Origin: Candidatus Eiseniibacteriota bacterium
Lineage (GTDB): Bacteria; Orphanbacterota; Orphanbacteria; Orphanbacterales; Orphanbacteraceae
Assembly (NCBI GenBank): GCA_016867715.1
Contig: VGIW01000007.1
Span: 717 to 64,716 of the forward strand
Length of the DNA stretch: 64,000 bases
Direction: 5' to 3'
In this document: one piece after another, positions 1,748-20,506 of the stretch
Layout of the letters: each line of letters begins with the position of its first letter
How positions within the stretch are numbered: the first letter of the stretch is position 1
Translations under genes and position numbers: made by a program
The notes under the pieces: generated by a model
Databases searched by the model: none
What the model saw: only the letters and a program-made list of their open reading frames with translations
What the model was told of the DNA's origin: nothing

Positions 1748-4660
1748 GTGGTGCGACTTGCCACCGTTCTCGCGACCGCTCTTCTTGCGCTCTCCGTTCT
1801 TGCCGCGCAAGCGGGGACCATCCACCCGATGCTTGAGGCGCGAATGGATGTTCTCCGCGACGGAGAGCCGATCAGCGTTCTCGTTCACATGACCGAACAG
1901 GCGCCGATCGCCGAGCTGAACCAGCACCTCAAGACCGAGCGGTCGACGATGGCCGAGAGGCATCGGCGCGTGATCGAGGCGCTCAAGACCGCCGCCAAGA
2001 GCCAAGAGCCGCTCGCCGCGCAGCTCGAGTCCTCGAAGGGAATCGGCGGCGTGGTCGGCTACACGCCCTACTGGATCTCGAACCTCTTCGTCGTGTACGC
2101 CACGAAGGACGCCATCTACGAGATCGCTGCGCGAAGCGACGTGGACTTCGTGGAGCCGAACTTCACCGTGAGCCTGATCAAGCCGGTGGGGACTCCGGAG
2201 CTCGGCTCGAGCGAGGAAACGCCGGCTCTGCGCGGGATCGGCGTCCCCCCGGGGATCCGGGCCGTGCGCGCGGATCAAGTTTGGTACGAGCTCGGCGTCA
2301 ACGGAAGCGGGCGCCTCATCGGCAGCCTCGACACGGGCGTCGACGGCAACCACCCCGCCCTCGCGAGCCGCTGGCGCGGAACGCACGCGCGGTGGCAGGA
2401 GTGCTGGTTCGACGTGCTCGGCTCGGGCGGGACAACGTTCCCTACGGACACGCACAGCCACGGAACGCACACGACCGGGACGATGACCGGGATGGCGCCG
2501 GACGACACGATCGGGGTCGCGTGGGGCGCCGAGTGGATCGCCTGCAACGCGATCAACCAGGGGGTCGGGAGCGAGTTCGACAACGACATCATCAAGGCGT
2601 TCCAGTGGTTCGCCGACCCGGACAGCAATCCGAACACGATCGACGACGTTCCCGACGTCGTGCAGAACTCGTGGGGGATCAACGAGGGGTTCCCGGGCGG
2701 CTACACCGACTGCGATTCCCGCTGGTGGGCGGTGATCGACAACTGCGAAGCGGCGGGAGTGGCGACGATCTGGTCCGCCGGCAACGAGGGATCGGGCGCG
2801 CAGACCCTTCGCTCGCCCGCCGACCGCGCGACCACGCTGACCAACGCTTTCTCGGTCGGCGCGGTGAACGCGACGAACTACTCGTGGCCGTATCCGATCG
2901 CGGGCTTCTCGAGCCGCGGGCCGACCGGTTGCACCGTCCCCGCCGATCGCAAGATCAAGCCGGAGGTCGTGGCGCCCGGCGTCAGCGTCTACTCGTCGGT
3001 TCCGGGCGGCGGCTACCAGCAGAGCGGATGGGACGGGACCTCGATGTCGGGGCCGCACGTCGCGGGAACCATCGCGTTGATGCGCCAGGCGAACCCGAAC
3101 CTTGACGTCGATACGATGAAGATGATCCTTATGCAGACCGCAAGGGACGAGGGGACCGCGGGCGAGGACAACACGTACGGGCACGGGTTCATCGACGCGT
3201 ATGCGGCCGTTCTCGCCGCGGTGGAAGGATACGGGCGGATCGAGGGGGTCGTGACGAACGGAAGCTACGGCAACGGTCCGCTTCCGGGCGCCGAGGTCGT
3301 GCTCGATGGGACCGGCTACCGCTGGCTGACCGCGGCGAACGGCTCCTACGGCGGCTTCGCGGAGGAGGGAACCTACACGGCCCGGGCGTCCCTCGCGGGG
3401 TTCGCTCCGCTTGAGATCCTCGTCGAGATCGTTTCCAACGACACCACGGTTCAGAACTTCGCTCTGACCGACATCGCGGGCCCCGCGATCACCGAGGTCT
3501 CCGAGCCGTTCGCGACCACCGACGAAACGGGACCCTACGCGATCGGCGCGAACGTCGAAGACTACAGCACCGTGGCCTCGGCGAGCCTCTTCTATCGGGT
3601 GGCCGGCGGTTCGTGGGTCGAGGTTCCGATGACGCGCGGCCGCGCGCTCTACGAGGGATCGATTCCCGGCGCACCCGCGAACACCCAGATCGATTACTAC
3701 GTGTGGGCGGAGGACGGCATCGGGCTCTCTTCCGTGAACCCGTCCGGAGCGCCGGCGGCCTTCTACTCGCTCTTCATCACCGAAACGATGTACGCGCACA
3801 ACGCGGAAGATCCGGGCGACGCGAACTGGATGCTCGGAATGCCGGGGGACGCGGCGACCACCGGGATCTGGGTGCGCGTCGACCCGAACGGAACGTCGTA
3901 CAACAGCGTGCCGATGCAGCCCGAGGACGACCACACGCCGGCGCCGGGCGTGAAGTGCTTCGTCACAGGACAGGGGAGCGTGGGAGGCGGCGCGGGAGAT
4001 GCGGACGTCGACAACGGCTGCACGACCCTTCGGAGCCCGATCTTCGACCTCAGCGACGCGAGCATGGCGTTCGTGCGCTACTGGCGATGGTACGCCGAGG
4101 GAGGGAACTCCACCGACGACCAGTTCGCCGTGGACGTCTCCGACGACGGCGGCACGACGTGGGTCCCGCTCGAGCGCGTCCCGTCGATCGCGAACACGTG
4201 GACGGAGGTAGCGGCGAACGTTTCCGACTTCGTGGATCTCACGCATCAGGTGGTCTTCCGGTTCGTGGCGTGCGATCTCAACACGCAAGGGCTCACCGAG
4301 GCGGCGATCGACGACTTCGCCGTCGAGACCTTCCAGGCGATCGACACGGACGTCGCGGCCGCGGCGGACGGAATCCGCGCGACCGAGCTTTTCGCGAGCC
4401 GTCCGAACCCGTTCCGCGCGGGAGGCGAGGTCTCGATCCGGTTCCAGCTTCCCCGCGCCGAGAATGTCGAGGTGAAGATCTACGACCTCAGCGGGCGCGT
4501 CGTTACGACGCTCGCCGAGGGGCGTTTCGCCGCGGGCGAACACCGTCTCGCTTGGGACGGGCGCGACGCGGACGGCAAGGAAGTCGCTTCAGGTGTGTAC
4601 TTCTATCGCATGAAGAGCGACACGCGGACGGAGAGCCGCCGCCTGACGATCCTGCGGTAG
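1748..4660 (+). CDS. Secreted subtilisin-like serine protease (peptidase S8) with a C-terminal T9SS / FlgD-Ig-like sorting domain
   Basis: 970 aa. The N-terminal signal peptide is MVRLATVLATALLALSVLAAQA. Catalytic motifs are DTGVDGNHP (Asp), HGTHTTGTM (His) and GTSMSGPHVAGT (Ser). The C-terminus ...VKIYDLSGRVVTTLAEGRFAAGEHRLAWDGRDADGKEVASGVYFYRM matches a type-A T9SS CTD. GTG start with RBS AAAGGAG. Confidence 0.9.
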   Translation: MVRLATVLATALLALSVLAAQAGTIHPMLEARMDVLRDGEPISVLVHMTEQAPIAELNQHLKTERSTMAERHRRVIEALKTAAKSQEPLAAQLESSKGIGGVVGYTPYWISNLFVVYATKDAIYEIAARSDVDFVEPNFTVSLIKPVGTPELGSSEETPALRGIGVPPGIRAVRADQVWYELGVNGSGRLIGSLDTGVDGNHPALASRWRGTHARWQECWFDVLGSGGTTFPTDTHSHGTHTTGTMTGMAPDDTIGVAWGAEWIACNAINQGVGSEFDNDIIKAFQWFADPDSNPNTIDDVPDVVQNSWGINEGFPGGYTDCDSRWWAVIDNCEAAGVATIWSAGNEGSGAQTLRSPADRATTLTNAFSVGAVNATNYSWPYPIAGFSSRGPTGCTVPADRKIKPEVVAPGVSVYSSVPGGGYQQSGWDGTSMSGPHVAGTIALMRQANPNLDVDTMKMILMQTARDEGTAGEDNTYGHGFIDAYAAVLAAVEGYGRIEGVVTNGSYGNGPLPGAEVVLDGTGYRWLTAANGSYGGFAEEGTYTARASLAGFAPLEILVEIVSNDTTVQNFALTDIAGPAITEVSEPFATTDETGPYAIGANVEDYSTVASASLFYRVAGGSWVEVPMTRGRALYEGSIPGAPANTQIDYYVWAEDGIGLSSVNPSGAPAAFYSLFITETMYAHNAEDPGDANWMLGMPGDAATTGIWVRVDPNGTSYNSVPMQPEDDHTPAPGVKCFVTGQGSVGGGAGDADVDNGCTTLRSPIFDLSDASMAFVRYWRWYAEGGNSTDDQFAVDVSDDGGTTWVPLERVPSIANTWTEVAANVSDFVDLTHQVVFRFVACDLNTQGLTEAAIDDFAVETFQAIDTDVAAAADGIRATELFASRPNPFRAGGEVSIRFQLPRAENVEVKIYDLSGRVVTTLAEGRFAAGEHRLAWDGRDADGKEVASGVYFYRMKSDTRTESRRLTILR

Positions 4661-4686
4661 ACGATCGCCCGAGCGGAAGAGACGAC

Positions 4687-4722
4687 GCCCGGCCGGAACC
4701 CCTTTCCGGCCGGGCTTTCGTT
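4687..4722 (+). terminator. Rho-independent terminator hairpin after the protease gene
   Basis: GCCCGGCCGGA, 7-nt loop ACCCCTT, TCCGGCCGGGC, followed by TTTCGTT. It lies in the convergent gap between the protease (+) and cyclase (-). Confidence 0.6.
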
Positions 4723-4799
4723 CACCCCAAGCCGATCGAAGCGCGTCGGGTGTTCTCCTCGCAGGGGTGCGGGGCGAGTGCGTGAACCCGCGAGTTTCC

Positions 4800-5687
4800 C
4801 TACCGACGGCTCGCCGAACGGGCGCGGGCCTCTTCGTGAAGCCACTCGTTCAGGGCGCCCGCGACATCGCCGAAGCGGGTGAGCTTCGCTTTCGCCTTCT
4901 TCTTCGTCAGCTCCGCGTGAAGGCCGTCGTCGACGAACGCGAGGATGCGGCAGATGCACGACTCGCCGTCGACGAGGCGCCAAGGGAACGCGCCGATCAC
5001 GGCGCGCCGGTTCAGAAGAAGATCGATGTCGCCGCCGAGGCACTCGGCGTGAACGATCCCGTGATTGAACAGCTCGAGGTGCATGAGCTGGTACTTCGAG
5101 TCGTCGAAGAAGTCGTCGAGCGGCTTGCCGTGCTTCTTCCGAAAATGCGTGTCCGCCTCTTTCGCCTGCCGCGGCATCCAGTTCCGGATGATCGTGTTCA
5201 TCGGGTGGTCGGCGCTCCCGCAGTCGACGCCGAGCCAGCGGAGCTTCTTCGCACGGCACCATTCGGCGAACTCCCGGTCCGGACCCGGGTGCTTCACCAT
5301 GTAACGGATCTCATCCGCCGCCGGCTGGTCCCATCCGAAGTGGTGGTAACCGGTGTGGATGACGAGGATGTCCCCCTCGCGCACCTCGACCCGCTCCTCG
5401 ACCATGCGCGAGGTGTAGACGTCGTAGTCTCCCGCCGCGTCGGAAAGATCGACGACGACCCCTTCATGCATCAGGTAATCGAGATCGAGCGAGGCGATGT
5501 CCTTCCCCGGCGTGTGGAAGTGGATCTCGCCGTCGAGGTGCGTGCCGACGTGGTTCGAGTGGGTGAGGATCTGGCCGTTCGCTCCGTTCGGCGCGAGACG
5601 CTTGAAGTACTTCATTTGAAGCGGCTCGTAGGTGGGCCACGCGGGCGTGCCGATCCCGAGCGGGATGGAGAGATCGATGGGGCGCAT
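4800..5687 (-). CDS. Cyclase-family protein (kynurenine formamidase / isatin hydrolase-like metal-dependent hydrolase, PF04199)
   Basis: The real start is the internal Met, MRPIDLSIPLG..., about 295 aa, with RBS AAGGAGG. The ORF-track entry 4800..7217 carries a spurious Arg-rich N-terminal extension. HxGTHxDxxxH-type motif: HSNHVGTHLDGEIHFH. The ATG overlaps the upstream stop (ATGA-type coupling). Confidence 0.85.
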   Translation of the reverse strand: MRPIDLSIPLGIGTPAWPTYEPLQMKYFKRLAPNGANGQILTHSNHVGTHLDGEIHFHTPGKDIASLDLDYLMHEGVVVDLSDAAGDYDVYTSRMVEERVEVREGDILVIHTGYHHFGWDQPAADEIRYMVKHPGPDREFAEWCRAKKLRWLGVDCGSADHPMNTIIRNWMPRQAKEADTHFRKKHGKPLDDFFDDSKYQLMHLELFNHGIVHAECLGGDIDLLLNRRAVIGAFPWRLVDGESCICRILAFVDDGLHAELTKKKAKAKLTRFGDVAGALNEWLHEEARARSASRR

Positions 5688-7153
5688 CAGGACCTCCTTG
5701 TTTCTTCTCTTCGCGCCGCGCAATGCTCGGCGAACGCGAGGAGGGCGTCGTGAAAGCACTTCCAAGGCGGGCGCACGAGCCCCGCGCCGACCTGCCCGAT
5801 GCCCGGTTCCCGGTGGGCGATGCCCGTGTTGATCGTCGGGAGGAGGTTTCGTTCCTCGACCTTTCGAATGTCGATGCCGACCGGCGTTCCCGCGAAGCCG
5901 AGCGCGGGGATCGCGAAGGCGCCGTTCGCGCCGATCGCGATTCGGCGCATCGCGCGCGTCGTTTGAAGAGCGTCTTCGGCCGATCCGCCGACGAACTGAA
6001 CGATCGCCGGAGCGGCCGCCATCGCGAAGCCGCCGAACCCCGCCGTCTCGGTGATCGAGGAATCGCCGATGTCCGCGTTCGCGTCCCCCTCTCCGAAGCC
6101 GGGGAAGTAGAGGCCGCGGACCGTCTCGGCGGGCGCGGTGAACCAGCGCCCGGGCATCGAGGCGAGCCGGATCCCAAAGTCGGTTCCGTTCCTCGCCATC
6201 ACCGAGACCATCGACGACAGCGTTTCCCCCTCCGCCGCGAGGAGCATGCACTTCGCCGCCGGCATCGAAAGGTTCAGGAAGAAATGATCGTTTCCGTGGA
6301 TGAACGCGAGGGCGCGCGCGGCTCTCTCCCGGTCCGCGGCCGCGCGCACGATCGCGGGGGCAAGCTCCCGGAAGAGAAGCGAGGTGGCGGCGCGGTTCCG
6401 GTTGTGTCCCTCGTCCCCCATCTGGAGGGCTTGCGCGAGGAGAGCCTTGAGGTCGATCGGACCGCGCGCGGCGAGCGCGTCCGCGAGAAGCGGCGCGAGA
6501 TCGTCGGATAGATATCGCAGCCGCGCGATCACATCCTCGGAGAACGCGCCGTAGCGGAGGACCTTCCCGAGCCCCTCGTTCAGCGTGGAGAAGGCGCGGT
6601 TTCCGCGGCCCGCTCCTTCCCCGTCCTCGACGATCCAGACCGGCATCGACGGCGTGACGAGACCGGCCATCGGTCCGACCGCTCGGTGTTCGTGGCACGG
6701 CTCGAAGCGAACGCCTCCCGCCGCGGCGATCCTCTCCGCTTCTGCCGCGCTCTTCGCTCGGCGCTCGAAGAGGAGGCCGCCGATCACCGCGCCCCGCATC
6801 GGGCCGCACATCCGCTCCCACGCGACGGGCGGACCGGCATGAAGAAAGAGATCGTCGGCCATGCCGGGGATCGTCTCTCTCGCGACGCCGATCCCGACGA
6901 GGCGGGGGCGGCTTTCGAGAAGACGCGCGAGCGCGCGTTCGTTCGCCGCGTCGATCGCGGGGCCGAGGGGTTCGGAGAGAAGCGCGCGGAGAGCGGCGAT
7001 GCGCGCGGCGTCGCCTCCGGCGGGGGGGAGGAAGGGGACCCGCGCGACCCTCGCGCCGGACGCCTCGGGCGCGCGCGCGACGCTGTCGATCCCGAGATGG
7101 ACGACCTCGATCGGACCGGCAAGAAGCGCGCGCGACGCGGCACGATCGTTCAT
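5687..7153 (-). CDS. DUF1116-family protein (YlbE / AllG-like, partner subunit of FdrA-type enzymes)
   Basis: 488 aa from MNDRAASRALLAGPIEV... with RBS AAGGAGG. It is directly coupled to fdrA upstream (stop/start overlap) and to the cyclase downstream. The call rests on gene context and overall composition matching the E. coli ylbE family. Confidence 0.75.
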   Translation of the reverse strand: MNDRAASRALLAGPIEVVHLGIDSVARAPEASGARVARVPFLPPAGGDAARIAALRALLSEPLGPAIDAANERALARLLESRPRLVGIGVARETIPGMADDLFLHAGPPVAWERMCGPMRGAVIGGLLFERRAKSAAEAERIAAAGGVRFEPCHEHRAVGPMAGLVTPSMPVWIVEDGEGAGRGNRAFSTLNEGLGKVLRYGAFSEDVIARLRYLSDDLAPLLADALAARGPIDLKALLAQALQMGDEGHNRNRAATSLLFRELAPAIVRAAADRERAARALAFIHGNDHFFLNLSMPAAKCMLLAAEGETLSSMVSVMARNGTDFGIRLASMPGRWFTAPAETVRGLYFPGFGEGDANADIGDSSITETAGFGGFAMAAAPAIVQFVGGSAEDALQTTRAMRRIAIGANGAFAIPALGFAGTPVGIDIRKVEERNLLPTINTGIAHREPGIGQVGAGLVRPPWKCFHDALLAFAEHCAARREETRRS

Positions 7154-8688
7154 GGGCGCCCGCCTCCTTGCAGAAGCTCCGCGGCCGCGCGGGCCGCGCG
7201 CGCCGCGCTCGCCGCAACGAGAACGCCGGCTTCGCGGAGAACCCTCTCCTGACGGTCTCGGTCCTGCGGATCGTCCGCCGCGCCGGCGACCGAAGAGACG
7301 ATCTCGAGTCGCGCTCCCTTTCTCGCGGCGCGCGCCTTCTCGATCGCCGCGGCGATCTCCGGAGCCGGATCCGGATGCGCTCCGTCGCCGAGAACGAGAT
7401 CGAGAAGAAGAAGGCCGATCGACGGATCGGCTCCCGCGCTTCGGATGAGATCGCAGCGGACGGTCGGGTCGATCATCGGGTGCGGCTTCCCGATCGTGTA
7501 GAAGTCTTCCCCGAGGTCGACGAGGAGATGCTCCGTCCCCTCGATCGGCCGCCCCGCGGGGAGCGGATGATTCGGCGTCCTCGCCTCGATTCCGCGGAGG
7601 GCGAGCGCGTGCTTCGCCTCCGCCGCAAGGGACCCGCCGCCGAAGAGCCCGAGAAGCCGCCCGCGGACCGGGTCCTTCTCCCGAAGAGCCGCTTCGAGCG
7701 ATCGGTCCGATTCCTCGAGGAAGGCGCTTGCGTCCGCCGCGCGAGACGCATACGCCGCCGCCGCGGCCGCCGCTTCGTCGATCGAGCCCGCGTACACCAC
7801 TCCTTCCTCGGGAGGCCGCCCTGCTTCTCCGAGGAGGCGGACGATGCACGGCTTCCCGATCCCGGCGAGAAGACCGTGAAGGCGCCTGGCGACCTCGAGG
7901 TCCGGGTTCTTCGCGATGAGAAGAATGACCTCGGTCGCCGCGTCCTCCGCGAGAAGGCGGAGGCCGAGCTCCGCGGTGCGTCCGTTCACCGCCCTCGAGA
8001 GATCGCGCCCTCCGGTTCCGATCGCGTGCGAGATCCCGACCCCCATCCGGTCGAGGAGACAACTCGCCTCCTGGATGCCGGTCCCGGACGCGCCGACGAT
8101 GCCGATCGGACCTCGGCGCACGCGGTTCGCGAACCCGAGACCGACGCGCGCGAGGATCGCGGTCCCGCAGTCGGGTCCCATGAGAAGAAGCCCGAGGCGC
8201 CGCGCGCGATCCTTGAGCTCAATTTCATCCTCGAGCGAAACATTGTCGCTGAAAAGAAAGACGTGGCGTTTCTCGTCGAGCGCGCGGTGCGCGACGAACG
8301 CCGCGTACGCGCCCGGCACCGCGATCGACACGAGGTTTGCGGCCGGCCGATCGGCGAGCGCCTCGGAGAGGCTCCCCGGAGCGGCCTCTCCCACGGGCGT
8401 CGCCGCCTCGGAGGCTTCCCCTCGGAGCGTCGCGTCGAGCGCCTCCTCCGCCGCCTCGAGGTCCGTCTCCCGTTCGCCCCGAAGCGCGGCGACGAGGTCG
8501 AGCGGCGTGATCTCCGCCTCTCGGCCCAAGCGGAAACCCGCGCGCGCAAGAAGATCGATGTTCATCGGCGTCCCCATCAGAACCTCGGCCTCGCGGATGC
8601 CGGGAATGGACTTCAAGGCATGCGCCGCCGCCATGAGCCGCGCGGAGTCGTGATAGGCCCCCTTCCGGATCAGCACGCGCTCGGTCAT
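7150..8688 (-). CDS. fdrA: FdrA-family protein (acyl-CoA-synthetase / succinyl-CoA-synthetase-like NAD(P)-binding fold; oxamate carbamoyltransferase large-subunit-like)
   Basis: 512 aa. The N-terminus MTERVLIRKGAYHDSARLMAAAHALKSIPGIREAEVLMGTPMNIDLLARAGF closely mirrors E. coli FdrA (MIHAFIKKGCFQDSVSLMIISRKL...VMMGTP.N). The CoA-ligase-like motif GIVGASGTG is present. The ORF-track entry has a junk N-terminal extension. Confidence 0.85.
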   Translation of the reverse strand: MTERVLIRKGAYHDSARLMAAAHALKSIPGIREAEVLMGTPMNIDLLARAGFRLGREAEITPLDLVAALRGERETDLEAAEEALDATLRGEASEAATPVGEAAPGSLSEALADRPAANLVSIAVPGAYAAFVAHRALDEKRHVFLFSDNVSLEDEIELKDRARRLGLLLMGPDCGTAILARVGLGFANRVRRGPIGIVGASGTGIQEASCLLDRMGVGISHAIGTGGRDLSRAVNGRTAELGLRLLAEDAATEVILLIAKNPDLEVARRLHGLLAGIGKPCIVRLLGEAGRPPEEGVVYAGSIDEAAAAAAAYASRAADASAFLEESDRSLEAALREKDPVRGRLLGLFGGGSLAAEAKHALALRGIEARTPNHPLPAGRPIEGTEHLLVDLGEDFYTIGKPHPMIDPTVRCDLIRSAGADPSIGLLLLDLVLGDGAHPDPAPEIAAAIEKARAARKGARLEIVSSVAGAADDPQDRDRQERVLREAGVLVAASAARAARAAAELLQGGGRP

Positions 8689-9617
8689 GCGGCACTCTCT
8701 TGATGATCGAAGGATCGCGCGAGCCCGAGCGCTCCGTCGATGAGATCGGCGCCGGTGCGGGCGCCGATCGCGGCGAGGCGAAGGGATCGCGCGGCGACCT
8801 CGGAAAGGGGCGCGCGCGGATCCCCGAGGATCGAGACGAAGGCGATCAGCGCCTCGGGAAAGCGGCGGCCCGATGCGTGGAGAAGCATCTCGCGGGCGAC
8901 GGGGGTCGTGTGCCCGCGGGGAACGCGCCCGAGCGCGCCGAGGTAGGTGGAGACCGCCTCGCGAGCGATCCGGCCGCCGCGCGAGAGATGAAGAGCCGCC
9001 GCCGCGAGCCCGACGAGACGGTCGTCTCCGCTCGGCGTGAGGCCGGGGCCGAGGCCGGAGAGGGCGAGGATGCGGCCTCGATACGCCTCTTCGCTCACGC
9101 ATCCCCCGAGGAGCCGCGCGGCGATCTCCTCTTCCGCCGCCGGTTCCGGGAACGGAGCGGAAGGCGGGGGAAAGAACTCGACATGAGCACGAAGCGCCTC
9201 GCGGGAAAGGGCGATCTTCTTCTCGGGAAGCTCGAGCGAAATCCCGGGGCCGCGAAGGAGAAGAGCGCGCGCGCCTTCGGCATCGGCGATCCGAAGCGTT
9301 CTCTTTCGAAAGGAGACGGTCGATCCCTCGCGGGGGAGCGGAACCCCACGGGGAAGCGCGGCCGAGAGCGGAACAAGATCCTTGAGGGATGAAAGAAAAG
9401 TGAGCGCGGGGCCCTCCCGATCGTCCGGCCGGAGAACCGCGGCGTGCGCGAAGACCCGCTCCACCCGCCCGCGCCACTCGCTCGTCCTTCTCGCGAGGGC
9501 GGCGTCGAATCGGTCGACGACATGCGGCGGCGATCTCACCCGCCCTTTTCCTTCCTCTTGAGGGCGGCCCGCACTTTCTCCGCCGTGATCGGGAGATCGA
9601 GGATCCGGATCCCGCAA
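8685..9617 (-). CDS. DUF2877-like protein (YlbF / AllH-like third subunit). The true start is probably 60-90 nt downstream of the ORF-track start.
   Basis: Its stop overlaps the fdrA start. It is Ala/Leu/Gly-rich with a TPSGDD motif. Its position in the FdrA-DUF1116 trio fits the E. coli fdrA-ylbE-ylbF arrangement. The annotated 5' end overlaps the XDH Mo subunit by 80 nt, so the start is uncertain. Confidence 0.5.
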   Translation of the reverse strand: MRDPDPRSPDHGGESAGRPQEEGKGRVRSPPHVVDRFDAALARRTSEWRGRVERVFAHAAVLRPDDREGPALTFLSSLKDLVPLSAALPRGVPLPREGSTVSFRKRTLRIADAEGARALLLRGPGISLELPEKKIALSREALRAHVEFFPPPSAPFPEPAAEEEIAARLLGGCVSEEAYRGRILALSGLGPGLTPSGDDRLVGLAAAALHLSRGGRIAREAVSTYLGALGRVPRGHTTPVAREMLLHASGRRFPEALIAFVSILGDPRAPLSEVAARSLRLAAIGARTGADLIDGALGLARSFDHQESAA

Positions 9618-11866
9618 GCGTCGAAGAGCGCGTTCGCGACCGCGGCGGGTGTCGGGATCATCGTGTGCTCGCCGATCCCGCGCGCGCCGAGAGGCCCGTC
9701 CGCTTGCGGCGTCTCGACGAAATCCAGCCGGATCTCGCGGGGGAGGTCCTCAGTCGTCGGGATCTTGTAGTCCACGAGAGATGCGTTCGCGACGCGGCCG
9801 CTCGCCGGATCGACGACGAGTTCCTCCATCATGCCGGTGCCGAGCCCCTGCACGACGCCTCCGTAGAGCTGTCCCGCGATCATCGCGGGATGGATCACGC
9901 GCCCCACGTCGTAGCACGCGGCCACGCGGTCCACCGTGTATTCTCCCGTTTCCGGATCCACGGTCACATCCACCGCTTGCGCGCCGAACGTCCACTTCGC
10001 GACCGGCTTCGGGCTCTGGCTCGTCTCCGGATCCAGATGGATCAACCCTTCTGGTATGAATGATCCGGCGGCCGCGACCGGCCCTCCGATCGTGTGCCCG
10101 TCCGGGAACTGGTATCCCATCGCGAGCTTCGTGATCGGGATCGAGCGGCCGCTCTTCGCGTGGACGACGTTCTCCTCCTCGACTGCGAGCTCCGAGGCGG
10201 GGACGCCGAGCGTCTCAGCGGCGGTCGCGAAGAGCTGATCGCGAATCTTCTCCGCGGCGCGGAAGATCGCGTTCCCCGTCGCCCACGATTGCCTCGAGGC
10301 GACGGTCTGCCAATCGTACGGGAAGGAATCGGTGTCCGGGTTGCCGCGCACGCGAACCTTCTCGATCGGCATGTTCATCGCTTCGGCGGCGAACTGGGCC
10401 GCGACGGTCTTGAGGCCCTGTCCGATGTCGATCCCGGAGATCAGAACCTCGAGAGTTCCGTCCTCCGCGTACTTGAGAAGAACCGACGAGGCGGCGTCGT
10501 TCGGCATCGCCGGGGCCTTCACCGCGCAGGCGATCCCCTTCCCCCGGTTCGGAGAGCGGGGGCGGTTCTCGCGCATCCCGATCATCTCGGCGACCCGGCG
10601 GATGCACTCGTCCACGCGCCCGGCCTCTTCGCCGAGCACCTCGCCGGTGACGGTCGACTTGCCGGGTCCGAGGCAGTTCAAGAGGCGGAAATCCGCCGGA
10701 TCCATGCCGATCTCGCGGGCGACGATGTCCATCTGCTGCTCGAGAGCCCAATGAATCTCCTGCATCCCAAACCCGCGGTACGCGCTTCCGACCGGACGGT
10801 TCGTGTAGACGCCGATCGAATCGCCCTCTACGTTCGGGAACTCGTACGCGCCGCCGCAGGTGTACCCCGCGGCACGCACGATGTTCACGCCGTAGCCGCC
10901 GTAGGCTCCGCAATCCCAAAGATAGTGCATCTTTTGGGCTTGAACCTTTCCGCTCCGGTCGATCCCGGTCGTCAACGTGGCGGTGAGTCCTTGGCGGACG
11001 ACGGTCCCGTAGAACTCCTCCGGTCGGTCGATGAGAAGCCGCACCCAGCGGCCTCTCGCCTTCATCGCGAGCGCGACCGCGATCGGCTCGATGCCGATGC
11101 CGGCCTTCCCGCCGAACCCGCCGCCGACCGCGGGAACGCGGACGGAGATGTCCCCGTGCGGCATCGAGAAGCAGGCGGCGAGGAGGTGTCGGACCGTGAA
11201 GGGGCTCTGCGCCGACGTGTGGACTTCGATCCTTCCCGAGAGGTCCGCGCGGGCGACCGCGACGTGAGTCTCGAGCGCGACATGCTGCACCTGCGGCACC
11301 GCGAACGTGTTCTCGAACACACAGGCGCACTTCGCCAGCGCTCTCCGGTAGTCCCCTTTCCGCACCTTGAGATGGTTGCAGATGTTCGTGCCGCCTCGGG
11401 GACGGATCCAGGGGACGCACTCGTACGCGCCGAGGTCCGGGTGGACGAGCGGCGCGTCCGGTCCGATTCCGGCGACCGCGTCGAAGTTCGCGGGGAGCGG
11501 CTCGTAGTCGACCTCGACGAGAGCGGCCGCCTCGCGAGCGGCCTCGGGTGTCTCCGCCGCCACGGCGGCGATCGAGTCCCCTACATGACGCGCTCGGTCG
11601 ATCGCGAAAATCGTTTGATCCTTGAGATAAATCCCGGTGTGGAAGGGGAACTCGCGTCCCGTCGCGACGGCCCGCACGCCGGGAACGCGCTCCGCCTTCT
11701 CCGTCCGCACGCCGAGGACCCGCGCGTGCGCGTGCGGGGATCGGACCACGTGCGCGTGCAGCATGCGCGGGAACTTGAGGTCGGCCGTGTAGCGCGCGCT
11801 CCCGGTCACCTTCTCCAACCCGTCGACGCGCGGAACGTCCTTTCCGACCCAGCGGGGCGCGCTCAT
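9536..11866 (-). CDS. Xanthine dehydrogenase / aldehyde oxidase family molybdopterin-binding large subunit (CoxL/XdhB-like)
   Basis: 776 aa from MSAPRWVGKDVPRVDGLEKVTGSARYTADLKFPRMLHAHVVRSPHAHARVLGV... and GGGFGGK, which are typical of molybdenum hydroxylases. The upstream ORF-track extension is junk. The ATG overlaps the stop of the 2Fe-2S subunit (ATGA). Confidence 0.9.
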   Translation of the reverse strand: MSAPRWVGKDVPRVDGLEKVTGSARYTADLKFPRMLHAHVVRSPHAHARVLGVRTEKAERVPGVRAVATGREFPFHTGIYLKDQTIFAIDRARHVGDSIAAVAAETPEAAREAAALVEVDYEPLPANFDAVAGIGPDAPLVHPDLGAYECVPWIRPRGGTNICNHLKVRKGDYRRALAKCACVFENTFAVPQVQHVALETHVAVARADLSGRIEVHTSAQSPFTVRHLLAACFSMPHGDISVRVPAVGGGFGGKAGIGIEPIAVALAMKARGRWVRLLIDRPEEFYGTVVRQGLTATLTTGIDRSGKVQAQKMHYLWDCGAYGGYGVNIVRAAGYTCGGAYEFPNVEGDSIGVYTNRPVGSAYRGFGMQEIHWALEQQMDIVAREIGMDPADFRLLNCLGPGKSTVTGEVLGEEAGRVDECIRRVAEMIGMRENRPRSPNRGKGIACAVKAPAMPNDAASSVLLKYAEDGTLEVLISGIDIGQGLKTVAAQFAAEAMNMPIEKVRVRGNPDTDSFPYDWQTVASRQSWATGNAIFRAAEKIRDQLFATAAETLGVPASELAVEEENVVHAKSGRSIPITKLAMGYQFPDGHTIGGPVAAAGSFIPEGLIHLDPETSQSPKPVAKWTFGAQAVDVTVDPETGEYTVDRVAACYDVGRVIHPAMIAGQLYGGVVQGLGTGMMEELVVDPASGRVANASLVDYKIPTTEDLPREIRLDFVETPQADGPLGARGIGEHTMIPTPAAVANALFDACGIRILDLPITAEKVRAALKRKEKGG

Positions 11867-12369
11867 CCCGTCTTCTCCTCCGGCGCGCGGGCGGCCTCGC
11901 CGCGCATCGCGGCGGCCGCGGCGAGGACCGCGTCGATGATCTGCCGGTATCCGGTGCAGCGGCAGAGGTTCCCGGAAAGCGCGGATCGAATCTCCGCCTC
12001 GGTCGGGCTCGGGTTCTCGCGGAGGAGCGCGAGCCCGGCGAGAATCATGCCGGGGGTGCAGAAGCCGCATTGCACGGCGGTATGCGCGAGGAACGCCGAC
12101 TGGAGCGGATGGAGGCGCGAGGCGTCCCCGATCCCCTCGATCGTCGTCACCGAGCAGCCGTCCGCCTCGACGGCGAGCATGAGACAGCTGTTCACCGGCT
12201 TGTCGTCGACGAGGACGATGCAGGAACCGCATTCCCCCTCGCCGCACCCCTCCTTCGCGCCGGTCAGGTCGAGCGTGTCCCGAAGAAAGGAGAGGAGCGT
12301 TTGGTTCGAGGGAACCGTCCGGCTTTCCTCGAGACCATTGACCCGCAAAGTGATCGTGTGCTCCGTCAT
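11863..12369 (-). CDS. Molybdenum hydroxylase (2Fe-2S)-binding small subunit (CoxS/XdhC-like)
   Basis: 168 aa: MTEHTITLRVNG...CGEGECGSC...CGFCTPGMIL...CRCTGY. Both plant-type and second 2Fe-2S cysteine motifs are present. Confidence 0.9.
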   Translation of the reverse strand: MTEHTITLRVNGLEESRTVPSNQTLLSFLRDTLDLTGAKEGCGEGECGSCIVLVDDKPVNSCLMLAVEADGCSVTTIEGIGDASRLHPLQSAFLAHTAVQCGFCTPGMILAGLALLRENPSPTEAEIRSALSGNLCRCTGYRQIIDAVLAAAAAMRGEAARAPEEKTG

Positions 12370-13289
12370 TTCGTTCGCCGGTCGAGCGCGGCGGCCCCGC
12401 GCCTCACGAGAACGCCCACCATCTCGCGCCGATACGCGGCGGTTCCCCGAAGATCGGTGATCGGGCGGCACGCCTCGCGCGCGATCTCGGCCGCCCGAGG
12501 CGCGGCGGCGGCTCCGTTTCGGTCGAGACAGGCCTCCGCCTCGGGAACGCGGAGCGGCGTCGGCGCGACCGAGGCGAGCGCCACGCGATGGCGTCCCGGA
12601 TCTTCTCCGTTCGAGCGCGCGACGAGCACGCCGACGGTCGCGAGGTCCATGCCGCGCCGGCGCGACAAACGGAAGTAGGCTCCGCGCCATCCCGACGCCG
12701 CGAGAGGGAGAACGACCTCCGTGACGAGCTCGCCCGGAAGGAGGGAGGTCTCGCCGGGTCCCGTGAAGAAATCCGCGATCCGGATCGCGCGCGATCCGGA
12801 CGGTCCGCACGCCGCCGCTTCCGCGTCCAAGGCGAGGAGGGCGACCGCCGTGTCCGCCGCCGGCGAGGCGTTGCAGATGTTCCCGATCATCGTCGCTCGG
12901 CTCCGGAGAGGCCGCGCGCCCACCCGCGTGCAGCATTCGGCGAGCAAAGGATACCGTTCGCGGACGATCGGATGCTCGGCGATCGCCGCGAGGGGAACCG
13001 CCGCCCCGATCGAAAGGTCTCCGTTCGTTCTCTCGCGGATCGCGGAGAGATCGTCGATCCTCTTGATGTCGATGAGAAGCCTCGGCGCGCGCTTCCCGAT
13101 CCTCATCTGCGTGAGGAGGTCGGTTCCTCCCGCGAGATAGGCGGCGCCGGGGCTCTCCCCCCACCGGGAGACCGCCTCTTCGACGGTCCTGGCGGCCGCG
13201 TATTCGAATCGGGAGAGAAGCACGGCGAATCCCCTACGGGCTCGGATCGAAAAGTTGAAGTCCGTAACAATCGCGTCTGACGAGCTCAC
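12366..13289 (-). CDS. Molybdenum hydroxylase FAD-binding medium subunit (CoxM/XdhA-like). The ORF-track start at 13289 is a GTG; an alternative GTG at 13223, preceded by AGGGGA, is more likely.
   Basis: AYLAGGTDLL FAD motif, and CO-dehydrogenase-flavoprotein C-terminal region. The 13289 start would overlap the DUF35 gene by 55 nt. Confidence 0.85.
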   Translation of the reverse strand: MSSSDAIVTDFNFSIRARRGFAVLLSRFEYAAARTVEEAVSRWGESPGAAYLAGGTDLLTQMRIGKRAPRLLIDIKRIDDLSAIRERTNGDLSIGAAVPLAAIAEHPIVRERYPLLAECCTRVGARPLRSRATMIGNICNASPAADTAVALLALDAEAAACGPSGSRAIRIADFFTGPGETSLLPGELVTEVVLPLAASGWRGAYFRLSRRRGMDLATVGVLVARSNGEDPGRHRVALASVAPTPLRVPEAEACLDRNGAAAAPRAAEIAREACRPITDLRGTAAYRREMVGVLVRRGAAALDRRTK

Positions 13290-13632
13290 GGACGAGCCCC
13301 GGACGCGCCTCGAGGAGCGCTCCCGTCTTCGGTTTCTCCGTCATGAGCACGCCCACCGCGCGGATCCCGTTCGTGAACTCGACCACGCCGAAGGCGAGGC
13401 TCGGCCGGTCGATCCCCTCGGGGAGGGCGTAGATCCTCGTCCACGTGAGGAGCTTGCAAGGGCCGCCGAGCGGGACTTTCTCGAAGTCGGAATACACGGT
13501 CGTCGAGGGATCGCGGCGGTTCCGGCACTTCCGGCAGATCATCGGCGCGGGATAGTAGAGCGCGCCGCACTCGGGGCATCGATACGCGTAGACGTTTCGG
13601 TCGACGGCGTAGAGCTCGGTCGTGGTCGGCAT
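13234..13632 (-). CDS. DUF35 Zn-ribbon/OB-fold protein (thiolase-associated)
   Basis: 132 aa with a CPECGALYYPAPMICRKC zinc ribbon followed by an OB-fold. It lies 3 nt after the thiolase stop, the canonical SCP-x-thiolase/DUF35 pair. Confidence 0.8.
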   Translation of the reverse strand: MPTTTELYAVDRNVYAYRCPECGALYYPAPMICRKCRNRRDPSTTVYSDFEKVPLGGPCKLLTWTRIYALPEGIDRPSLAFGVVEFTNGIRAVGVLMTEKPKTGALLEARPGLVRELVRRDCYGLQLFDPSP

Positions 13633-13635
13633 GGT

Positions 13636-14814
13636 CTACTCCTTGGCGAGGATCGTCGCGACGACGTTGTTTCCGAAGCCTCCGAAGTTGACTGCGAGAC
13701 CGTAGCGCGGGTTCTTCACGCGCCGCCCTTCCTCCGCCTCTCCGCGGAGCTGCTTCACGATCTCGTGGATCTGGGAGACGCCGGTCGCGCCGACCGGGTG
13801 CCCTTTCGCCTTGAGGCCGCCCGACGTGTTGATCGGGATGCGCCCTCCGATCTCGGTTTCGCCCCGTTCGATCGCCTTCTTCGCTCCGCCCTTCGGGAAG
13901 AAACCGACCTCCTCGCTCTCGGCGACCTCGAGGATGAGAAACGCGTCGTGCAGCTCCGCGAAGGAGATCTCCTTCGGACCGATCCCCGCCATCGCGTACG
14001 CCCGCTCGGCGGCGAGCCGAACCGCCTTGAGATCGAGAAGGTCGTCCCGATTGAACACGCAATGCGTGTCGGTCGCCTGTCCGATCCCCGCGATGCGGAT
14101 CGGTCTCTTCTTGAACCGTCCGGCCGTATCCATCGCGGTAAGCACGACCGACGCGGCCCCGTCGGAAACGGGACAAAGGTCATAGAGACGTAAAGGATCC
14201 GCCATCACCGGGTTCACGACCTCCCGGTGCGGTCCGTCATAGATCCCGTCGATGCTCGCCGTCTCCTCGATGTGGGCGAAGGGGTTCTTCTCCGCGTTCT
14301 GGTGCGCCTTCACCGCGATCATCGCGAGATGCTTTTCCGTAAGGCCGTGCCGTTCCATGTACGCGCGCGTGAACATCCCGCCGTACGCGGGGAGCGTGAG
14401 CCCGTAGGGGTACTCCGCGTCCGGATGCGTGAGCGTGGCGACGAAATCGGTCGCCTTCCATCCGGTCGTTTCGCGCATCCGCTCGCCGCCGGTCACGAGG
14501 ACCGTGTCCGCCATCCCGGCCGCGATCGCGAGATACCCGCACTTGACCGCGGAAGCGCCGGAGGCGGGGCCGTTCTCGATCGTCTCCGCCATCGCCGGCT
14601 CGAGGAAGATGCGCGAGACGAGCGCCGAGGCGATCCCGGTCTGGTTGTTGATCGCTCCCGCCCCCATGTTGGCGACGAAGACCTGGTCGATGCCCCCCTC
14701 GATGCCCGCGTCCTTGAGCGCCTCGAGAGACGACCAGGCCATGATGTCCACGAGGTCGTAGTCCAAGCGGCCGAACTTCGTGTGTCCGATCCCGGCGATT
14801 CCGACCGCCCTCAT
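13636..14814 (-). CDS. Thiolase-family protein (SCP-x / nonspecific lipid-transfer-protein-type acetyl-CoA C-acyltransferase)
   Basis: 392 aa: MRAVGIAGIGHTKFGR... with active-site Cys context SGASAVKCGYLAIAAG and C-terminal NTSGGLKAKGHPVGATG. Confidence 0.85.
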   Translation of the reverse strand: MRAVGIAGIGHTKFGRLDYDLVDIMAWSSLEALKDAGIEGGIDQVFVANMGAGAINNQTGIASALVSRIFLEPAMAETIENGPASGASAVKCGYLAIAAGMADTVLVTGGERMRETTGWKATDFVATLTHPDAEYPYGLTLPAYGGMFTRAYMERHGLTEKHLAMIAVKAHQNAEKNPFAHIEETASIDGIYDGPHREVVNPVMADPLRLYDLCPVSDGAASVVLTAMDTAGRFKKRPIRIAGIGQATDTHCVFNRDDLLDLKAVRLAAERAYAMAGIGPKEISFAELHDAFLILEVAESEEVGFFPKGGAKKAIERGETEIGGRIPINTSGGLKAKGHPVGATGVSQIHEIVKQLRGEAEEGRRVKNPRYGLAVNFGGFGNNVVATILAKE

Positions 14815-15485
14815 CGCTTGAACCCCGGAATCTGCGGGTACTCGTCCGGAAGGACGAGCGTGTCCGCGGTGCGAAGAACCTCCGGCGGGACGGGGCGCGT
14901 GCCGGCGAGAAGCCGCGTCTTGTACAGGTCGTACAGCTTCCTGGTGAGCGCGTACGACCCGACGCCGCCGAGCTCGTGCTGGAAATCAGGTCTCGGCTCG
15001 AGCTGGTACTCGATCATCCACCGCTTGAAGCCGAGGTAGCTCTCCGCGACGATGAAGACCTCTTCCTGATTCAGGACATCCATGTGATGTTCCATCTTGG
15101 CGGCGAACATGTGGGCGCCGCAACGAAGGCCCCGATGGATCGTCAGCGTGTGATAGCTCATTCCGCGTTTCTCGTCGATCATCCGTCCGTTCACGAGGCT
15201 CGCGATCACGCCGTCGATCGTGCCGACGAGGCAGTACGGATCGAGCGTGCGGTGGAGATACTGGCTCAAGAGCTCGGCGTACATGCGCGCCGCCACGATG
15301 TCGTAGAAATCCTTGCGAACGCGGACGAGAGGTTCGATCGCCTCGAGAAGAATTGGGATGTCGTCCCCCTCGGCCTGGCGCACGACGAGAGTCTTGCCGG
15401 ACGCGAGGACGATCATTTTCGGAGGATAGGGCGGCATCGCCCGCGCGGGCGGCCGGAGCCTCTTCTCGAGTTCGTCCAGGATCAT
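14811..15485 (-). CDS. Hypothetical protein, probably a GNAT-fold acyltransferase
   Basis: 224 aa. Weak GNAT motif-A-like HRGLRCGAHMF. Its stop overlaps the thiolase start by 4 nt, so it is co-transcribed. Confidence 0.45.
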   Translation of the reverse strand: MILDELEKRLRPPARAMPPYPPKMIVLASGKTLVVRQAEGDDIPILLEAIEPLVRVRKDFYDIVAARMYAELLSQYLHRTLDPYCLVGTIDGVIASLVNGRMIDEKRGMSYHTLTIHRGLRCGAHMFAAKMEHHMDVLNQEEVFIVAESYLGFKRWMIEYQLEPRPDFQHELGGVGSYALTRKLYDLYKTRLLAGTRPVPPEVLRTADTLVLPDEYPQIPGFKR

Positions 15486-15607
15486 GAACGCTCCTTTCGC
15501 GAGAGGGGGCGGGCGCCGGAACCGAGCGGGACGAACGGATCGACGCCCGCCCTATGATCGTAAGACGCGCGCCGTGTTCGGCGCAAGAGGCGTTCGCGTG
15601 AACCGTG

Positions 15608-20440: not shown

Positions 20441-20506
20441 CGCTCTTCGGTAGTTCGTTCGTGTGTGAACGATCGGTTTTCGGTTCAGGGCGGAGGGTGC
20501 GGATCC

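Follow-up and report, generated by a model that had tools for sequence, protein, structure and literature searches.

A conserved gene cluster for a molybdenum hydroxylase, AllHFG-like proteins and a cyclase-family hydrolase: a candidate route of oxidative pyrimidine degradation in mostly anaerobic bacteria

The classical oxidative pathway of pyrimidine degradation, found in Rhodococcus, Mycobacterium and Corynebacterium, employs uracil/thymine dehydrogenase, barbiturase and ureidomalonase, and the known uracil dehydrogenase is a three-subunit enzyme with molybdenum (Mo), FAD and Fe-S centers. Barbiturase and ureidomalonase are both mentioned in published work (PMC4051656, PMC3758960). In E. 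coli, the purified AllFGH proteins have been shown to convert oxalurate and phosphate reversibly into carbamoyl phosphate and oxamate in a reaction that is free of CoA (PMC11326118). E. coli K-12 also carries uncharacterized paralogues of these proteins in the yahE-yahF-yahG-(yahH)-yahI-yahJ cluster (L091, 335925-342507). Here, we describe a gene cluster in Candidatus Eiseniibacteriota bacterium (contig VGIW01000007.1; the 64,000-nucleotide stretch that was analysed is referred to as the window), in which genes for a three-subunit Mo hydroxylase of the xanthine dehydrogenase (XDH) family, for AllH-, AllF- and AllG-like proteins and for a cyclase-family hydrolase stand together. We see about an even chance that this widespread, uncharacterized cluster encodes an oxidative but oxygen-independent degradation of uracil and cytosine by way of carbamoyl phosphate.

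The open reading frame (ORF) listing, Pfam matches and direct reading of the sequence reveal ten tightly packed minus-strand genes at 15485..4800 of the window, which has a GC content of 62-71%. From 5' to 3', these encode a GNAT-fold protein, a thiolase-like protein, a DUF35 protein, the FAD, 2Fe-2S and Mo subunits of the hydroxylase, the AllH-, AllF- and AllG-like proteins, and the cyclase (Table 1). An earlier note on this DNA, made from its sequence alone, had described only the last seven genes as an operon; these ORFs lie where it had placed them, and each identity is backed by Pfam or NCBIfam, while the conserved GNAT-like/thiolase-like/DUF35 module upstream had been missed. Reading of the junctions confirmed the four stop/start overlaps listed at the time and added two, for a total of six: ATGA at 12369-12366, 11866-11863, 8688-8685 and 7153-7150, GTGA at 9539-9536, and TGATG at 5689-5685. 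Likewise, an ATGA overlap joins the GNAT-fold gene to the thiolase-like gene, which is separated from the DUF35 gene by 3 nucleotides (nt), and a further 10 nt lead from the DUF35 gene to the probable start of the FAD gene. Start codons were placed from all in-frame starts together with their upstream sequence. For the FAD gene, the GTG at 13223 is more likely than the start at 13289 given in the earlier note, because the stop of the DUF35 gene is at 13234 and the Pfam match begins at residue 5 of the 13223 model. From the overlaps, we infer that the genes are co-transcribed and translationally coupled.

The same genes recur in several hundred species, mostly anaerobes. One genome per GTDB species was scanned with an alignment of the AllG subfamily, and at least 584 stretches fit the subfamily motifs. 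The census described here covers the best 80 of these, picked solely by AllG similarity (52-95% identity) and taken with 10-kb flanks, and the 33 loci whose flanks reach 8 kb or more on both sides are referred to as long loci. Window and reference proteins were mapped to the 80 loci by tblastn, leftover ORFs were clustered by BLAST, and the cluster labels were checked with Pfam. The AllF gene stands immediately 5' of the AllG gene in all 68 loci with enough sequence (68/68), and the cyclase gene follows within 500 bp 3' of AllG in 60 of 66. Among the long loci, all 33 possess the cyclase, 28 the Mo subunit, 19 an NCS2 permease and at least 23 a DUF2877 protein; such a neighbourhood census had been proposed in the earlier note. 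The arrangement of the window, FAD-FeS-Mo-(AllH)-AllF-AllG-cyclase, with the Mo genes directly upstream of (AllH-)AllF, is seen in 22 of the 80 loci, and in 20 others the Mo genes lie downstream of the cyclase (12) or elsewhere (8). Three early gene maps displayed the order FAD-FeS-Mo-AllH-AllF-AllG-cyclase with a nucleobase permease and/or an amidase alongside. Median identity to the window protein is 75% for the cyclase, 58% for AllG, 45% for the Mo subunit and 42% for AllF, with AllG homologues in other phyla reaching 65-78%.

Since this synteny is conserved in unrelated genomes, the packing seen in the window is not a product of chance, and the persistence of the linkage across phyla in at least three gene orders points to selection for co-location rather than to one inherited arrangement. 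It is very improbable, then, that the hydroxylase and the allHFG-cyclase genes have independent functions and are merely packed together in this metagenome-assembled genome (MAG). In five of the 33 long loci, no Mo subunit gene is present within 10 kb, and the hydroxylase genes do not keep to one place, but the linkage in the other 28 spans many phyla, and start/stop overlaps are found at every junction of the seven-gene stretch. The claim that these genes form one functional unit is borne out by synteny over about a dozen phyla, with hosts that include Acidobacteriota, Myxococcota, Spirochaetota, Thermotogota, Bipolaricaulota, Caldisericota, Chloroflexota, Eisenbacteria, Riflebacteria, Ignavibacteria, Atribacterota and Firmicutes. 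Clustering of the ORFs left in the gaps and Pfam matching of 121 ORFs nearby yielded no further core component; the neighbours of low frequency include Na+-decarboxylase subunits, a nucleoside ABC transporter, PucR/GntR regulators and MobA. The MobA-like NTP-transferase gene, located near the hydroxylase genes in three loci (L026, L027, L062), probably serves in maturation of the molybdopterin dinucleotide cofactor. The AllG protein of the window has a 100% identical counterpart annotated from a Candidatus Eisenbacteria MAG. It is 95% identical to one from a MAG labelled Gemmatimonadetes and 73-77% identical to those of Thermoanaerobaculia and Holophagales, but identity drops to just 56-59% for the proteins of three further Eisenbacteria MAGs, a pattern that points to mis-binning or to horizontal transfer of the cluster.

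All three families of E. coli AllFGH are present and adjacent in the window. The AllF-like protein scores 439.7 bits on the NCBIfam FdrA model (cutoff 433), shares 41% of its residues with E. coli FdrA and 35% with YahF, and contains a segment, SHAIGTGGRD, that aligns with THAIGLGGRD of FdrA. The AllG-like protein is 46% identical to YlbE over 415 amino acids (aa) and 44% identical to YahG over its full length (422 bits), its residues 7-476 aligning with residues 2-468 of YahG, N-terminal extension included. The AllH-like protein is 37% identical to E. coli YlbF at the C-terminus only, and 26% identical to YahE over the full length. The operon differs from E. coli allF-allG-allH-allK in that its order is H-F-G, without the allB/C/D/E context, and YlbE lacks the N-terminal extension of about 65 aa present in the AllG protein of the window. 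The order DUF2877, FdrA-like, DUF1116 and the long form of the DUF1116 protein (about 470-490 aa) are instead those of the yah cluster. The likeness to allFGH claimed in the earlier note thus holds for the protein families, whereas gene order and AllG architecture are closer to E. coli yahEFG.

The yah cluster also has carbamate-kinase-like and amidohydrolase-family genes, as does the related locus of Moorella described below, but a cyclase, a Mo hydroxylase and a thiolase-like module are all missing from E. coli there, and the cluster gives no mechanistic precedent; it may act on a related ureide. Unlike the allFGH genes, the triplet examined here has a cyclase-family hydrolase gene after it, and a Mo hydroxylase and a permease of the uracil type are its usual companions. 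A further likeness to AllFGH is that a carbamate kinase gene is clustered with the operon in some relatives, which fits the AllFGH logic of phosphate cleavage of an acyl-urea to carbamoyl phosphate. In place of oxalurate, the substrate of the complex would be ureidomalonate, probably one carbon longer. An allantoin locus was also considered and ruled out, as no homologues of AllC, AllD, AllE or AllK were found in the 64-kb window, nor any allantoinase; in the 80 related loci, allantoin-type proteins are represented by no more than one weak match to AllD. Of the features that, according to the earlier note, would have marked an ordinary purine/allantoin locus, carbamate kinase does occur in the clusters of some relatives, both cultured acetogens described below included, which agrees with carbamoyl phosphate as a product and does not turn the cluster into an allantoin locus; allantoin genes and an XDH identity of the Mo subunit were not found.

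In the pathway that we propose, the three-subunit XDH-family Mo enzyme would hydroxylate uracil at C6 to give barbiturate, and the cyclase, replacing the unrelated classical barbiturase, would open barbiturate to ureidomalonate. The AllH/AllF/AllG-like complex would then cleave ureidomalonate with phosphate to carbamoyl phosphate and malonamate, just as AllFGH cleaves oxalurate, and carbamate kinase would turn the carbamoyl phosphate into ATP, CO2 and NH3; for the window organism, the gene for this last enzyme would lie elsewhere, if it exists at all. Finally, the C3 amide would be converted to a CoA thioester or acetyl-CoA by a CoA-transferase III and an amidase or, in the window, by the GNAT-like/thiolase-like/DUF35 block, referred to as the T-module. 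Both the substrate and every one of these reactions we infer from sequence, and the succession of Mo-dependent hydroxylation, ring opening by the cyclase and FdrA-type carbamoyl transfer, first suggested in the earlier note, still seems the best reading.

The first step and the intermediates barbiturate and ureidomalonate would be shared with the classical oxidative pathway. There, the ring is opened by a barbiturase of the AtzD/TrzD family and the ureide is hydrolysed to urea and malonate by an amidase-type ureidomalonase, whereas here a cyclase-family metalloenzyme would open the ring and cleavage by phosphate would conserve energy, in hosts that are mostly anaerobes. No AtzD/TrzD-family barbiturase was seen among the 25 commonest neighbour Pfam families, a comparison in which no barbiturase query sequence was used. 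The cluster probably unites an AllFGH-type carbamoyltransferase with oxidative pyrimidine breakdown in a new combination that includes new parts. A distinctly more tentative proposal is that the pathway as a whole is undescribed, the cyclase being a non-homologous barbiturase, the AllHFG-like complex a ureidomalonate phosphorylase whose carbamoyl phosphate would feed substrate-level ATP synthesis, and the T-module a new CoA-thioester-forming enzyme in place of the amidase and CoA-transferase.

The putative ring-opening enzyme is the most conserved component. Its match to the cyclase family of Pfam (PF04199) reaches 115 bits against a threshold of 23.1, and its metal motif, H46-x-G-T-H50-x-D52-x3-H56, aligns with the metal site of KynB and consists of residues conserved to 97% or more across 73 homologues; the same degree of conservation is reached by 73 of the 295 positions of the protein. 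With a score of 43 bits on the arylformamidase model TIGR03035 (cutoff 223), it falls far short of the kynurenine formamidases, and no tryptophan-pathway genes were found near it. Enzymes of the cyclase family are known to open isatin and a six-membered, trione-like dihydrophloroglucinol ring (PMC10470551). KynB, isatin hydrolase and dihydrophloroglucinol cyclohydrolase share with the window cyclase the Pfam family and the HxGTHxDxxxH metal motif, and they set a precedent for the opening of cyclic amides and of a six-membered 1,3-dicarbonyl ring (PMC10470551). The window cyclase is distant from every characterized member; for example, it matches KynB at E = 5e-7 and is about 85 aa longer. Judged by its sequence, and by a median identity that stays so high across phyla, it is a distinct and unusually conserved subfamily.

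The hydroxylase consists of separate FAD, double [2Fe-2S] and Mo subunits, with every Pfam domain above its gathering threshold, and it belongs to the XDH/CoxLMS family. The Mo subunit remains under every NCBIfam equivalog cutoff and is not a bona fide xanthine dehydrogenase: XdhA_XDHase 508 vs 780 bits, PRK09970 477 vs 916, pucD 406 vs 784 and xdhB 301 vs 850, with scores also below the cutoffs for carbon monoxide dehydrogenase, PaoC and glyceraldehyde dehydrogenase. The Mo motifs GGGFGGKAGI, YRGFG and GIGEH are common to the window and to orthologues of Acidobacteriota, Clostridium autoethanogenum and Moorella. In an alignment with E. coli XdhA, GIGEH stands opposite LGEPP, so that the Glu near the C-terminus is kept, as is the Arg of YRGFG; this Glu is the catalytic base of the hydroxylase family (GEPP-type motif).

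These comparisons bear on the main rival explanation, which we regard as unlikely. In a purine or five-membered-ureide route, the Mo enzyme would oxidize a purine or hydantoin-type ring, the cyclase would open an imidazolidine-trione-like ring to give oxalurate, and the triplet would be a true oxamate carbamoyltransferase, with oxamate being converted to oxalate by the amidase and on to oxalyl-CoA by the CoA-transferase. Models of XdhA, XdhB and XdhC are among the top NCBIfam matches of all three hydroxylase subunits, but the XDH equivalog scores are far under the cutoffs. In an alignment that had E. coli XdhA as its reference, the window protein and all cluster-linked orthologues carry Ala right after GGFGGK, where the purine-binding Glu802 of bovine XDH would be placed. 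As an argument against a purine this is weak, since E. coli XdhA itself reads GNKQ there.

A second and still less probable alternative is an aromatic or heteroaromatic acid route that operates on CoA thioesters. Here, the FdrA-like protein and its partners would be an ADP-forming acyl-CoA synthetase, the Mo enzyme a (de)hydroxylase resembling 4-hydroxybenzoyl-CoA reductase, and the thiolase-like and DUF35 proteins would cleave a beta-oxoacyl-CoA. The alpha subunit score of 509 bits on 4-hydroxybenzoyl-CoA reductase is only about half of the cutoff of 995, and the beta (141 vs 405) and gamma (187 vs 258) subunit models are not passed either. The FAD subunit, of 285 aa in the model starting at 13223, aligns end to end with the XdhB profile, at a score under the cutoff and with no long insertion.

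The relatives of the cluster bear more directly on the substrate. A search with the 224-aa GNAT-fold protein revealed homologues in cultured acetogens, where public names of the cluster proteins are generic ('DUF1116 domain-containing', 'cyclase family', 'xanthine dehydrogenase family', '4-hydroxybenzoyl-CoA reductase subunit alpha'). In C. autoethanogenum (around CLAU_0414, AGY74652-AGY74661), the order is PucR, AllH, AllF, AllG, cyclase, the 224-aa homologue, the thiolase-like protein and DUF35, followed by the FAD, FeS and Mo genes, an NCS2 permease, a carbamate kinase and a 3-hydroxyacyl-CoA dehydrogenase. In Moorella thermoacetica, AllF, AllG, cyclase, FAD, FeS, Mo, a permease and PucR are followed by the 224-aa homologue, the thiolase-like protein, DUF35, an amidohydrolase, an NCS1 permease, a second XDH-type enzyme and an AA_kinase-family gene of the carbamate kinase type, with the genes from the amidohydrolase onward lying beside the cluster at 12505-20134 of L089. 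The second XDH-family enzyme of Moorella, also of three subunits, is nearer to XdhA (572 bits) though still under the cutoff.

Among the linked NCS2 permeases, four score above the NCBIfam equivalog cutoff of 477 for uracil permease: those of an Acidobacteriota locus (L001, 644), Anaeromyxobacter (L039, 588), C. autoethanogenum (644) and Moorella (650). Taken as a whole, 12 of 14 linked permeases score higher on UraA/RutG than on the xanthine-permease model. The Moorella amidohydrolase reaches 430.5 bits on a cytosine-deaminase model with a cutoff of 438, and similar amidohydrolases, together with PnrA-type nucleoside-binding proteins, occur in three loci (L026, L038, L084). Carbamate-kinase-like genes, 35-42% identical to E. 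coli AllK, are seen near the cluster in some of the 80 loci, and the carbamate kinase in the C. autoethanogenum cluster scores 395 bits on TIGR00746 (cutoff 358). The likely substrate is a pyrimidine, that is, uracil, or cytosine after deamination; the purine, pyridine or indole-type compound named in the earlier note appears less probable in view of the UraA-type permeases and cytosine-deaminase-like neighbours. The same neighbours count against a purine or five-membered-ureide route, as do the low identity of AllG to YlbE, the YahG-like architecture of AllG, and the lack of guanine deaminase, uricase, allantoinase and AllC/D/E among recurrent neighbours of the 80 loci. In its favour, the sole characterized AllFGH acts on oxalurate, and the best NCBIfam match of the linked CoA-transferase is CoA:oxalate CoA-transferase, with 377 bits where the cutoff is 522.

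The last step of the proposed pyrimidine pathway appears to be carried by one of two modules. The T-module is present in 16 loci, while a CoA-transferase III and/or an amidase follows the cyclase in 18. Amidases of the AS family occur in 16 loci, and a nitrilase-superfamily hydrolase takes the amidase position in L072, L053 and L070, the latter two having no recognized CoA-transferase. The two modules occur together in none of the 33 long loci (Fisher p = 1.6e-4, a value weakened by phylogenetic non-independence). This mutual exclusion suggests that they are alternative solutions for one intermediate, an amide that also bears a carboxylate, which fits malonamate. Furthermore, genes for a biotin-dependent carboxyltransferase, a biotin carrier and an OAD_beta Na+-translocating decarboxylase adjoin the cluster in three to four loci of Spirochaetota and Chloroflexota (L064, L070, L079, L084), which would fit malonyl- or methylmalonyl-CoA as a product, or its decarboxylation.

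Within the T-module, the 224-aa GNAT-fold protein has no Pfam or NCBIfam match. Its AF2 model (pLDDT 91) was matched by Foldseek to GNAT acetyltransferases, with a TM score of about 0.5, and homologues of 55-60% identity stand beside the cluster in 22 of the 80 loci, as well as in C. autoethanogenum and Moorella. The family numbers about 1190 homologues, including proteins of C. autoethanogenum, C. ljungdahlii, C. ragsdalei and Moorella. The thiolase-like protein is of the archaeal/SCP-x type, its best PDB matches being archaeal acetoacetyl-CoA thiolases (7yvy, 6esq). It reads ENGPASG where these two read EAACASG, with Pro in place of the nucleophile Cys in 19 of 19 cluster-linked homologues, and it is therefore not expected to perform ordinary thiolysis; C214 (in DLCPVSDG) and the His of a GHP motif are invariant. 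Homologues were found in L023, L025, L029, L032, L035, L038, L039, L041, L046, L055, L056, L058, L061, L068, L069, L081, L088 and L089, and their gene always sits between the GNAT-fold and DUF35 genes, the latter following it in all 16 T-module loci; the Moorella DUF35 homologue also matches OB_ChsH2_C.

A thiolase-fold gene next to a DUF35 Zn-ribbon/OB gene is typical of the archaeal thiolase/HMG-CoA synthase/DUF35 complex (6esq/6et9), PhlACB, BbsAB and Ltp2-ChsH2, in which an SCP-x/archaeal thiolase and DUF35 work with a third catalytic partner. Here, too, there are three adjacent genes, which may encode a comparable assembly, and the T-module differs in that the third partner has a GNAT fold and Pro replaces the nucleophile Cys. 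Thiolysis of ureidomalonyl- or malonamoyl-CoA, or a decarboxylative condensation of malonyl-CoA, was considered as a role for the T-module and found to be unsupported, the missing Cys arguing against ordinary thiolysis. The presence of thiolase-like, DUF35 and CoA-transferase III genes in the cluster is what an aromatic acid route on CoA thioesters would lead one to expect, as are the CoA_binding and Ligase_CoA domains of FdrA, the 3-hydroxyacyl-CoA dehydrogenase gene after the C. autoethanogenum cluster, and the use of the 4-hydroxybenzoyl-CoA reductase name in Clostridium annotations. Against such a route, CoA is not needed by purified E. coli AllFGH, the Cys required for thiolysis is missing from the thiolase-like protein, and the recurrent neighbours are nucleobase permeases, carbamate kinases and cytosine-deaminase-like proteins, with no aromatic-acid transporters or ring reductases among them.

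Several observations weigh against a pyrimidine pathway and have to be set beside the evidence for it. The 64-kb window contains no permease, carbamate kinase, regulator or amidase, and the contig, at 65 kb, reaches little beyond it, so the assignment of the substrate rests wholly on relatives. In those relatives, a carbamate kinase is near the cluster in just 6 of 80 loci, and many of the loci come from related MAGs, especially of Spirochaetota, and their counts are not independent events. Two of the 14 permeases are xanthine-like (L026, L082) and the regulators in the Firmicutes clusters are of the PucR type, named for purine catabolism; both would suit a purine route. The closest solved Mo chain is the alpha subunit of 4-hydroxybenzoyl-CoA reductase (1rm6_A, E = 5e-100), an enzyme that acts on a CoA ester, as the aromatic acid alternative would have it. 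Finally, it is not obvious what the thiolase-like module would do in the proposed pathway, and a route that uses CoA esters from an earlier step is possible.

No description of this cluster was found in the literature searched, which did not extend to subscription journals; the work on E. coli AllFGH was the sole relevant match (PMC11326118). A review preprint of pyrimidine and purine routes (10.1101/2025.05.19.654654) contains no such pathway, and in NCBIfam (June 2026) the AllG, AllH and GNAT-like proteins are each without a model. If the proposal is correct, it would add a further route of pyrimidine catabolism to the reductive, Rut, URC and classical oxidative ones, and one suited to anoxic habitats and able to conserve energy via carbamoyl phosphate. 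It would likewise provide a function for DUF1116 and DUF2877 proteins outside the allantoin context of E. coli, for an unusually conserved branch of cyclases, for a family without a Pfam model, and for a branch of the XDH family that is often mislabelled as 4-hydroxybenzoyl-CoA reductase, while offering the first functional lead for E. coli yahEFG. It would also enlarge the capacity for recycling nitrogen and nucleobases that is ascribed to phyla of sediments and the subsurface, among them Eisenbacteria, Thermoanaerobaculia, Spirochaetota, Bipolaricaulota and Caldisericota. The hypothesis is directly testable, as the cluster is found in the genetically tractable C. autoethanogenum, C. ljungdahlii and M. 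thermoacetica.

Table 1. Genes and flanking elements of the cluster, in window coordinates (position 1 is the first letter of the window)
Feature	Position	Strand	Remarks
Intergenic region, 122 nt, presumed promoter region	15486..15607	-	5' of GNAT-fold gene
GNAT-fold protein, 224 aa	14811..15485	-	operon gene 1, first part of T-module; AAAGGAG Shine-Dalgarno
Thiolase-like protein, 392 aa	13636..14814	-	Pfam Thiolase_N and Thiolase_C_1
DUF35-type Zn-ribbon/OB-fold protein, 132 aa	13234..13632	-	Pfam zf-ChsH2
FAD subunit, XDH/CoxM-type, 285 aa	12366..13223 (alternative GTG 13289)	-	Pfam FAD_binding_5 and CO_deh_flav_C
[2Fe-2S] subunit, 168 aa	11863..12369	-	Pfam Fer2 and Fer2_2; ATGA overlap at each end
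Mo (molybdopterin-binding) large subunit, 776 aa; proposed uracil dehydrogenase	9536..11866	-	Pfam Ald_Xan_dh_C and MoCoBD_1/2
AllH/YahE-like DUF2877 protein, 284 aa	8685..9539	-	Pfam AllH 48.6 bits; GTGA and ATGA overlaps
AllF/FdrA/YahF-like subunit, 512 aa	7150..8688	-	CoA_binding and Ligase_CoA; succinyl-CoA-synthetase-alpha-like fold
AllG/YlbE/YahG-like DUF1116 subunit, 488 aa	5687..7153	-	Pfam AllG 314.8 bits; N-terminal extension
Cyclase-family (PF04199) metal-dependent hydrolase, 295 aa; proposed ring opener	4800..5687	-	Pfam Cyclase 115 bits
GC-rich hairpin, 12-bp stem, 10 GC pairs	4687..4715	.	between convergent cyclase and protease genes

At its 3' end, the operon is likely closed by the hairpin listed in Table 1, which would act as a bidirectional terminator. 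A promoter scan of positions 4400-16200 found no sigma-70 consensus site, although this consensus is uninformative for the host phylum. Upstream of the presumed promoter region, and on the same strand, is a GH31 alpha-glucosidase-type gene (15608-17812), which is kept in none of the related loci. The convergent neighbour (1748-4660, plus strand) encodes a 970-aa secreted subtilase (Peptidase_S8) with CarboxypepD_reg-like and FlgD_ig domains, ending in a type IX secretion C-terminal sorting domain. Further along the window, a transketolase-like ORF stops at 20440, just 5' of an ORF of 1539 aa (20465-25084, plus strand) with an N-terminal part resembling AMP-binding acyl-CoA synthetases (TSGSTGMPKG) and a long, uncharacterized C-terminal region.

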